This document shows positions 512 through 1,635 of a DNA stretch of 1,635 nt, in pieces (the stretch's first letter is position 1; each line of letters starts with the position of its first letter). Origin of the DNA: Naegleria gruberi (taxonomy: Eukaryota); the NCBI GenBank assembly GCA_000004985.1, contig GG739363.1. One strand, 5' to 3'. Below the pieces are notes generated by a model. The model worked only from the letters and a program-made list of their open reading frames with translations, searched no databases and had not been told where the DNA came from. The position numbers were made by a program, and so were the translations under genes.

Positions 512-569
512 GTAAGTTTTTTTAAATGTAGTATTCAACATAATCATTACAATAACATTTCAATAATAG
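512..569 (+). other. Spliceosomal intron (58 nt, phase 1) in the carboxypeptidase gene. Donor GTAAGT at 512-517, acceptor AG at 568-569, possible branch 'aataac' about 13 nt before the AG.
   Basis: Splicing g511 to c570 creates the codon GCT (Ala) and restores the S10 consensus VRG-A-GHMVP exactly. Unspliced, the frame reads RGGKFF-stop (taa 523-525). There is no TACTAAC box. Confidence 0.85.
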
Positions 570-646
570 CTGGTCACATGGTTCCTCAAACAAGAGCTGC
601 TTCTGCCTTGAGAATGCTTACAAACTTTTTGAATGACAAGTGGTAA
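570..646 (+). CDS. Serine carboxypeptidase S10, terminal exon: (A)GHMVPQTRAASALRMLTNFLNDKW*. The catalytic His codon is cac 575-577 and the stop is taa 644-646.
   Basis: GHMVP is the signature catalytic-His motif of S10 carboxypeptidases (compare CPY ...FNGGHMVPFDVP..., wheat CPD-WII ...VRGAGHEVP...). The frame continues from exon 1 only via the 512..569 intron. The C-terminal tail ...ALxMxxxFL... is typical of the family. Confidence 0.88.
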
Positions 647-673
647 ATTCCAAATATTACAATTATTTCAGTA

Positions 674-679
674 AATAAA
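674..679 (+). promoter_or_regulatory. Canonical AATAAA polyadenylation signal for the carboxypeptidase gene, 28 nt after its stop codon. It lies only ~30 nt upstream of the next gene's ATG.
   Basis: The exact hexamer aataaa at 674-679 sits in the A/T-rich 61-nt spacer between taa(644-646) and atg(708-710). Confidence 0.5.
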
Positions 680-707
680 ATTAGAAAAAAATATAATAAT
701 TGAAACA

Positions 708-1222
708 ATGAAAAAATATCGAATAGAAAGTGAAACACTCATCCTACTGAGAAAGTTATTTATCGAGCAAGCTCTCCAACAAGAGAATGAACTGGGAGGT
801 GTTTTCGATTTTACATCATCAATTGATAGAAAAATAGTTTCGGAAGAGAAAAACAATGAACAGAATTCTATTATTACAACAAGTAGTAGTGATGAAAGTG
901 ATAAAGAAGGGGTGGAGAATGAAAATCATCATAAACGTAAATTAACAAGAAGAATTCGGAAAGAAGAAAAAACTTGTAAAAAAAAGAAAATTAATGATCA
1001 TGATGAAACTCCATCGGAAATAGATGAAGAAGTAATAATTCTAACGATACAAAAGCAATTAGATGAAGAACAAGCATCTTCATCAATTAGGAAGGGAAGG
1101 AGACAATTGGATTATACACTATGTGAGGTTCATGATGATGTTCCGTATACTTTTCATTGTCATCCGATTGAAATTGATAGAAAGACTAAACTTCCTATTA
1201 ATATGGCCAATTTAATATCAAG
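708..1222 (+). CDS. Exon 1 of an uncharacterised, probably nuclear protein. Residues 1-35 are an amphipathic N-terminus. An acidic Ser/Glu-rich stretch follows (...NNEQNSIITTSSSDESDKEGVENEN...), then a strongly basic NLS-like block (HHKRKLTRRIRKEEKTCKKKK), then a Cys/His cluster (LCEVHDDVPYTFHCHP). The exon ends after ag at 1221-1222, phase 2.
   Basis: A 515-nt open frame starts at an ATG with A at -3 (aaacaATGa) and has an upstream in-frame stop taa 672-674. It is AT-rich but stop-free for 171 codons. A consensus AAG|GTAATT donor sits at 1223 and the frame continues after a 66-nt intron. Confidence 0.72.
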
Positions 1223-1288
1223 GTAATTAATTCAAATTAATTTAAATAATTATTTAATTATTTAATAATATTAATTTTGATATTATAG
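1223..1288 (+). other. Spliceosomal intron (66 nt, a multiple of 3). Donor GTAATT at 1223-1228, acceptor tatAG at 1287-1288. It is essentially pure A/T low-complexity sequence (aattaatt / taatta palindromic units). The in-frame stop taa 1224-1226 overlaps the donor.
   Basis: Without splicing the ORF stops at 1226 (...NLISR*). Joining 1222 to 1289 gives ...NLIS-S-EDMIGVV... and a frame that stays open for 115 more codons to the window end. Between exons the composition falls to near-zero G+C. Confidence 0.72.
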
Positions 1289-1635
1289 TGAGGATATGAT
1301 CGGAGTTGTACAAGATCACATCGATAATGTGGGATATCTATCAAATTGTCAAGGAAAATTACTATTTGATATTCTATTGTGTCCAGTTGGAATATTCGTC
1401 TATAGTGCCACAAATGCCATCACTGAAAAGTGGGTTGAAATGGAAGAGGCAATGCCTTACAATCAAAAGAATAGGAAATTAATGAAATTATTGGATCCAT
1501 TATCAGATTGTTCGAATAATGAAAATTTTGAAAAACAATTGAAACACTTAATACACACTACACTCAATGAGGATAATCCATTCTGGGCAACTGAGGAAAA
1601 TGCATTAATGAATGAAGGGTTTAATGCATATATTG
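1289..1635 (+). CDS. Exon 2 (3'-partial, running off the window) of the same uncharacterised protein: SEDMIGVVQDHIDNVGYLSNCQGKLLFDILLCPVGIFVYSATNAITEKWVEMEEAMPYNQKNRKLMKLLDPLSDCSNNENFEKQLKHLIHTTLNEDNPFWATEENALMNEGFNAYI...
   Basis: After the AG at 1288, the frame in phase with exon 1 has no stop for 347 nt in ~30% GC DNA, which is very unlikely by chance. The other two frames contain multiple stops. Hydrophobic and charged residues alternate as expected for a folded domain. Confidence 0.7.

Follow-up and report, generated by a model that had tools for sequence, protein, structure and literature searches.

What does the second gene on contig GG739363.1 of Naegleria gruberi encode? This contig of 1,635 bp, analysed here in its entirety and referred to as the window, is AT-rich (32% G+C) and carries two genes on the plus strand, 61 bp apart. 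An earlier note, made from the letters alone, described the product of the second gene as a nuclear-type protein with an acidic Ser cluster, a bipartite basic block, a Cys/His cluster and a separate C-terminal domain, and could not assign it to any family by eye; Pfam and PDB sequence searches also fail to do so. Our best explanation, to which we give a probability of about 0.7, is that its product is a highly divergent JAB/MPN+ (JAMM) metallohydrolase, that the charged stretch is an insert loop in this enzyme, and that its chemistry is probably the cleavage of peptide or isopeptide bonds.

The putative catalytic residues stand out in an alignment (A5) of 34 diverse family members, trimmed to the core and showing 24–52% identity to the N. 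gruberi protein. Its sole invariant positions are E28, H150, H152, N165, D174 and G206, and a further set (G31, D144, P153, S171, D181, G194 and D199) is at least 90% conserved. The conserved E...HxH...SxxD set among these residues is the JAMM motif. The candidate general-base Glu belongs to E28-L-G-G31 (positions 789 to 800; this and all other features given here are on the plus strand), which opens the second beta-strand; the zinc-ligand motif HxH corresponds to H150-C-H152-P153 (1155 to 1166), at a strand end in the predicted structure; and the SxxD motif, S171-S-E-D174 (1218 to 1295), is split by an intron and lies at the N-terminus of a helix comprising residues 172–181. The middle residue of HxH is Thr in most relatives and Cys (C151, giving HCH) in the N. 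gruberi protein and its Naegleria and Willaertia orthologs. The invariant N165 (1200 to 1202), within the linker from HxH to SxxD, is specific to this family. In the canonical sites of AfJAMM and Rpn11, the Glu is found at the start of the strand that follows helix 1, HxH at a strand end and SxxD at the N-terminus of a helix.

Judging from motif identity and position, H150, H152 and D174 would be the ligands of a catalytic Zn2+, E28 would be the general base that activates the zinc-bound water, and S171 would stabilise the transition state, with Ser, Glu and zinc playing the roles that they have in Rpn11, CSN5, AMSH and the archaeal JAMMs. By analogy with such enzymes, the protein is most likely a Zn-dependent hydrolase and probably an (iso)peptidase, which possibly removes a ubiquitin-like modifier. 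We favour a peptidase because the biochemically characterised active JAB enzymes known to us are (iso)peptidases, and because our models look closer to peptidase JAMMs than to RadC.

The same residues account for the Cys/His patch LCEVHDDVPYTFHCHP (aa 138–153, nucleotides 1119 to 1166), which had been taken for a possible metal-binding knuckle. This peptide is present, as are the others that had been quoted (aa 59–73, 76–94, 203–220 and 265–286), although its spacing is C-x2-H-x7-H-C-H and not x8. The guess of metal binding was sound in that H150 and H152 are the invariant JAMM His residues; the zinc knuckle itself was rejected, because its ligand set is not conserved in A5, where C139 occurs in a subset only, the place of H142 is taken by N, D, G or other residues, and C151 is mostly Thr.

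The predicted structure agrees with the motif. An AlphaFold2 model of the N. gruberi protein contains a helix at residues 8–25, a strand at 29–37 that starts from E28, and the helix at 172–181, opened by S171 and D174; overall, it shows the alpha/beta fold of the JAB/MPN+ superfamily. In this model, the first ca. 222 residues are predicted to form a single JAB domain. A helical extension follows the core, and in the full-length orthologs a C-terminal helix and two strands complete one compact globule. What the earlier note considered a separate globular region of ~115 aa is, instead, the second half of the JAB core together with the helical extension specific to the family.

Both charged blocks are located within this same domain. 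The acidic Ser cluster SSSDESDKEGVENEN (aa 59–73, nucleotides 882 to 926) and the Lys/Arg block KRKLTRRIRKEEKTCKKKK (aa 76–94, nucleotides 933 to 989) are inside a disordered, lineage-specific insert comprising aa 41–104 (828 to 1019). AlphaFold2 assigns to the insert, and to aa 117–125, a predicted local distance difference test score (pLDDT) below 50, and the insert likewise scores below 50 in an ortholog model. In an alignment of eight relatives, aa ~38–135 fall in gap-rich, unalignable columns, in which P0004 and P0007 are nearly empty; between the disordered stretches, there is a short strand (109–114, VIILTI) to which every relative has an aligned counterpart. The charged loop sits between the second and third beta-strands of the enzyme domain and varies in length among relatives. 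As modelled, then, the charged stretch is a disordered surface loop specific to the Naegleria/Willaertia lineage and outside the conserved machinery. The acidic and basic blocks are not conserved modules, because the loop is disordered, variable and missing in several relatives. Separate nuclear localisation signal (NLS) and acidic modules, placed before a C-terminal domain in the earlier note, were thus discarded: the two blocks belong to one loop of one enzyme domain.

Basic clusters of the NLS type and sites of the CK2 type nevertheless occur there as sequence patterns, and the insert of every Naegleria and Willaertia ortholog includes acidic runs and a short basic cluster of the KRK type. 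From these patterns, a role of the insert in localisation or regulation is possible, and the basic tract could function as an NLS in Naegleria. Tracts rich in Lys/Arg (10–14 of 20 residues) are also found at differing, non-homologous positions in P0046, P0049, P0053, P0025 and P0052, being N-terminal in some short forms of the family and internal in the N. gruberi protein; they may follow from the base composition of AT-rich genomes, or they may reflect a recurrent need for nuclear or nucleic-acid targeting.

The gene model from which the protein is deduced, with two exons and at least 287 aa, was borne out by comparison with orthologs. The ATG at 708, preceded by an in-frame stop, starts an open reading frame (ORF) of 172 codons and agrees with the ortholog N-termini (MKKYRIESETL / MTQRFRIEFDTL). 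Exon 1 (708 to 1222), delimited from the ORF list, the translation and the ortholog starts, comprises codons 1–171 plus two bases of codon 172, and encodes the N-terminal helix and then, through the putative catalytic Glu, disordered insert and HxH strand, the domain as far as the first Ser of SxxD. It is followed by a spliceosomal intron (1223 to 1288) of 66 nt and phase 2, with GT at 1223 and AG at 1287–1288, a G+C content of 6% and many stops. Exon 2 (1289 to 1635), supported by the ortholog alignment and the structure model, has no stop before the end of the contig; it contains the remaining JAB core (to ~aa 222, nucleotide 1439) and then the beginning of the helical extension, with the motif NPFWATEENALMNxGFN. 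With 1222 spliced to 1289, no stop interrupts the frame as far as base 1634, and the product has 287 aa.

Protein searches with the spliced product retrieved full-length orthologs from N. lovaniensis (364 aa, E = 1e-69) and Willaertia magna (391 aa, E = 2e-55), values that indicate a real gene and not a chance ORF, as well as an N-terminally incomplete relative of 207 aa from N. fowleri. The N. lovaniensis ortholog has an intron of 41 nt (6384–6424 on its locus, L001) at the matching point, two bases into the same Ser codon (NLIS/SEDM), and the intronless gene of W. magna (L009, 5001–6176) reads continuously across the junction (PNLISSEDLIG); the 1222/1289 junction is thus confirmed by comparison rather than by RNA data. 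The intron, kept in position and phase in the two Naegleria species and absent from W. magna, reflects a small event of intron gain or loss in Heterolobosea that can be dated. As had been anticipated, the gene extends past the window: from the comparison with N. lovaniensis, approximately 121 C-terminal residues lie beyond the contig end.

Several results weigh against the assignment to the JAB/MPN+ superfamily. The spacer from HxH to Ser is of 18 aa in the N. gruberi protein and of 16–23 aa in the family, compared to 7 in the canonical JAMM spacing, H-x-H-x7-S-x2-D. Pfam searches were empty for the protein and its seven closest relatives, as were PDB sequence and profile searches with alignments A1 and A5; comparison of the family profile with human PSMD14 (Rpn11) using hhalign gave a probability of 1.8%, that is, no match; and neither a ubiquitin-like partner nor a conserved cellular neighbour was found. 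The only Pfam family that comes near, DUF4329 (PF14220), was matched over the motif-bearing region by two distant relatives, P0022 (E = 4e-6, 27.2 bits) and P0032 (E = 4e-3, 17.6 bits), both below the gathering threshold of 28.6 bits, and the N. gruberi protein itself gives no match. Lastly, the JAB toxin domains to which DUF4329 belongs were predicted to be possible nucleases (Zhang et al. 2012, PMC3482391).

These two DUF4329 matches, the sole relevant output of Pfam searches across sets of 8, 25 and 20 relatives, are statistically suggestive of homology. There was no significant match of the N. gruberi protein or its close relatives to the curated JAB-clan models PF01398, PF14464 and PF04002, and searches of PHROGs and NCBIfam with the 34 cores gave nothing useful. 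Overall, the protein passes the tests of JAB fold and motif and fails those of sequence models and canonical spacing.

Could the same fold and zinc site act on something other than peptides? In such a scenario, which we consider unlikely, the substrate would be nucleic acid or another non-peptide molecule, and the basic tracts would aid nucleic-acid binding or nuclear targeting; Aravind's group is said to have predicted nucleic-acid-type activity for RadC and the Tox-JAB toxin domains. A nuclease role has been proposed for DUF4329/Tox-JAB-2, the nearest described sequence family (PMC3482391), but it is a prediction or an annotation in the literature that we found on DUF4329/Tox-JAB, which contains no biochemical test of it. 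The recurrence of Lys/Arg tracts in the N. gruberi protein, P0025, P0046, P0049, P0052 and P0053 lends this scenario a little support, although these tracts vary in position and many members have none. Also in its favour, polar residues outside the peptidase JAMM motif are conserved, N165 being invariant and D144, D181 and D199 at least 90% conserved.

We find it very improbable that the protein is a chromatin, nucleolar or replication/repair factor assembled from a CK2 acidic tract, a bipartite NLS, a Cys/His knuckle and a separate C-terminal domain, as the earlier note suggested. The patterns on which this view was built do exist, and the KRK-type cluster and acidic runs persist in the Naegleria and Willaertia orthologs; however, their location is an insert that is disordered, variable and missing from several relatives, C139, H142 and C151 are not conserved, H150 and H152 are part of E/HxH/SxxD in a JAB fold, and no DNA- or chromatin-binding domain was detected in Pfam searches. 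Hardly more can be said for a catalytically dead, structural scaffold of the MPN type, or for a decaying viral insertion, even with a family that is common to giant viruses and a truncated gene on a tiny contig. All five JAMM catalytic positions are kept in protist and viral members at ~25% identity, which argues for an MPN+ signature rather than an MPN- scaffold, and decay is at odds with an intron position kept between Naegleria species and with intact orthologs in cellular contexts; both possibilities were therefore rejected. A divergent JAB/JAMM hydrolase, probably a peptidase, is accordingly the reading that we retain, and much of the novelty claimed in the earlier note, which was to stand unless the protein matched a well-characterised family, disappears with its fold-level assignment to a well-known superfamily.

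Members of the family are rare: among 1.84 billion cluster representatives searched exhaustively with HMMER, 53 proteins reached E ≤ 1e-3, one of which (P0058) is a repeat-protein false positive. Naegleria, Willaertia and the apusomonad Thecamonas trahens are the sources known by name, and the remainder come from anonymous assemblies and metagenomes. A word-indexed protein search with the core profile added two members (P0062 and P0063) and no tie to annotated JAB families. No relative was confirmed by a pattern scan that covered 185,579 prokaryotic genomes, one per species, and a tblastn search of phage and plasmid collections with the most DUF4329-like core produced chance matches only (E ≥ 3). 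Literature searches on Naegleria JAB proteins and on iridovirus homologues were uninformative; the papers searched contain no description of the protist long form, and the family has no model in Pfam. Around the orthologs lie ordinary eukaryotic genes (kinase, ankyrin, VPS9, adaptor subunits, DEAD helicase, RCC1 and vault), with no shared synteny among the cellular loci compared.

Outside protists, the family leads to giant viruses. In Foldseek comparisons with the predicted viral structures of BFVD, all top matches were proteins of nucleocytoplasmic large DNA viruses (NCLDV), with E = 2e-5 to 1e-2 and probabilities of at least 0.9, and with low TM-scores (0.2–0.35); they include Frog virus 3 ORF 3R, Q197B4 of IIV-3, and entries from Harvfovirus, Pithovirus, Heterosigma akashiwo virus, Bathycoccus virus and Mimivirus-like viruses. 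Likewise, a scan of IMG/VR yielded five loci that encode short forms of 253–285 aa; two of these loci are on contigs labelled as giant-virus metagenome-assembled genomes (GVMAGs). The GVMAG short forms contain the core motifs common to the family, GDxPFTFHTHP...DNYPNLISxEDLIG...FDIxAVPxG, and the C-terminal element Y..L...GF.VDFFPW is common to the short forms and the protist long form. P0063 is encoded on a 23-kb contig with genes of NCLDV type, for an Evr1/Pox_E10 thiol oxidase, an XRN exonuclease, Lon, a rhodopsin and DnaJ.

In three giant-virus-type loci (L002, 10001–13686; L006, 4770–8912; L008, 912–4745), the JAB-like short form is followed by HMGL-like and XRN 5'-3' exonuclease genes and preceded by an unassigned opposite-strand gene of ~293–295 aa, with an additional thioredoxin gene in between in L002; this block probably reflects collinear genomes of related viruses. 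Viral short forms (the ORFs of L004, L006 and L008, and P0042, P0062 and P0063) end in Cys-x-Cys (…DxxCMC, …KICNC, …MCKC), an ending found in sequences from GVMAGs, IMG/VR and NCLDV-type contigs and in close sequences of unknown source, and which the protist long forms lack.

The protist genes are cellular, because they have introns and ordinary eukaryotic neighbours. The findings point to gene exchange between amoebae and giant viruses. It is a good deal more doubtful whether the protist long forms and the giant-virus short forms make up an undescribed JAB branch of eukaryotes and NCLDV, exchanged between host and virus, whose substrate is not a ubiquitin-type conjugate; were this so, the enzyme might be, for instance, a hydrolase of nucleic acids or virion components acting in virus-host conflict, and the Naegleria copy might have been domesticated from a virus or might serve as an antiviral gene.

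Upstream of the JAB-like gene, the window holds the 3' part of a serine carboxypeptidase (S10) gene (22 to 646; Pfam PF00450, E = 8e-34, profile positions 269–419 of 420). This has an intron of 58 nt (512–569) and a final exon (570–646) that carries the GHMVP catalytic-His motif and the stop, so that the spliced gene reads ...VRGAGHMVPQ...NDKW* and ends at 646. The half with the catalytic Ser is outside the contig or missing, and the ORF begins with ~31 residues (MPKRSINSK...) that bear no resemblance to the S10 family and may be intron or untranslated region. The public N. gruberi protein P0001 (‘predicted protein, partial’, 328 aa) is 99% identical to our spliced product, but it fuses ...TFVTVRG of the carboxypeptidase straight to ...ESETLILL of the JAB-like gene (window 512–725), omitting both the last carboxypeptidase exon, with GHMVP and the stop at 646, and the JAB-like start codon at 708. 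The contig contains two genes and not one, because the carboxypeptidase ends at 646 and the second gene has its own ATG, as do its orthologs. P0001 is thus a chimera that splices a serine carboxypeptidase into the JAB-like gene, and its database entry should be corrected.

The outcome is useful rather than surprising, in that an unrecognised nuclear protein is replaced by a specific enzyme hypothesis. A hypothetical family of Naegleria (including the pathogen N. fowleri), Willaertia and Thecamonas gains named candidate catalytic residues for its annotation. The eukaryotic MPN+ set canonically comprises Rpn11, CSN5, AMSH, BRCC36 and MYSM1, and the family would be an MPN+ lineage outside this set, shared almost only with giant viruses. 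It also offers a small, concrete case for gene exchange between amoebae and NCLDV, and a route to the activity of the DUF4329/Tox-JAB-2 clade.

How does this protein compare with known systems? In contrast to the JAMM/MPN+ isopeptidases with which we compared it (AfJAMM, PfJAMM1, Rpn11/PSMD14, CSN5, AMSH/sst2 and BRCC36, and the bacterial Cap3 and BilC), the family shows no sequence similarity to them detectable by HMMER or hhalign, has a linker of 16–23 residues with an invariant Asn instead of the canonical 7, and contains additional conserved Asp and Gly positions. It also has a disordered insert of ~65 aa in Naegleria, a helical extension, and a terminal helix and two strands, and it has no known partner MPN subunit or ubiquitin-like substrate. 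The JAB domain of RadC/YicR resembles it in the fold and in HxH...S..D. The giant-virus short forms differ from the protist long form in lacking both the charged loop and a mostly helical insert of ~100 aa (NPFWATEENALMN...GSWYY; long-form motif NPFWATEENALMNxGFNxYIGSWYY), within which the window ends, and in having an additional loop after the VQD helix and the CxC ending.

Among described families, DUF4329/Tox-JAB-2 appears from sequence to be the nearest relative. Zhang et al. (2012, PMC3482391) equated DUF4329 with Tox-JAB-2, a JAB clade with the motifs E, H[ST]H, S and D, which forms the tips of bacterial polymorphic toxins and also occurs in iridoviruses, mimiviruses, algal viruses and some phages. 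The family of the N. gruberi protein touches no other Pfam model, most of its members have this motif set, and the reported iridovirus, mimivirus and algal-virus versions of DUF4329 come from the virus groups that gave our best BFVD matches. The N. gruberi protein and its Naegleria and Willaertia orthologs have HCH in place of H[ST]H, whereas most of the family has HTH, with the other motif residues present. Moreover, the protein is stand-alone and apparently of cytoplasmic type, with the JAB domain starting from residue 1 and without RHS, PAAR or secretion modules, and it has no adjacent immunity gene, its neighbours being ordinary cellular genes. Membership in DUF4329 is not demonstrable, because the relatives score below threshold and the toxin architecture is lacking. 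Since the protein passes the fold and motif tests but fails those of sequence models and spacing, we file it as a new and very divergent member of the JAB/JAMM superfamily, lying closest to Tox-JAB-2.
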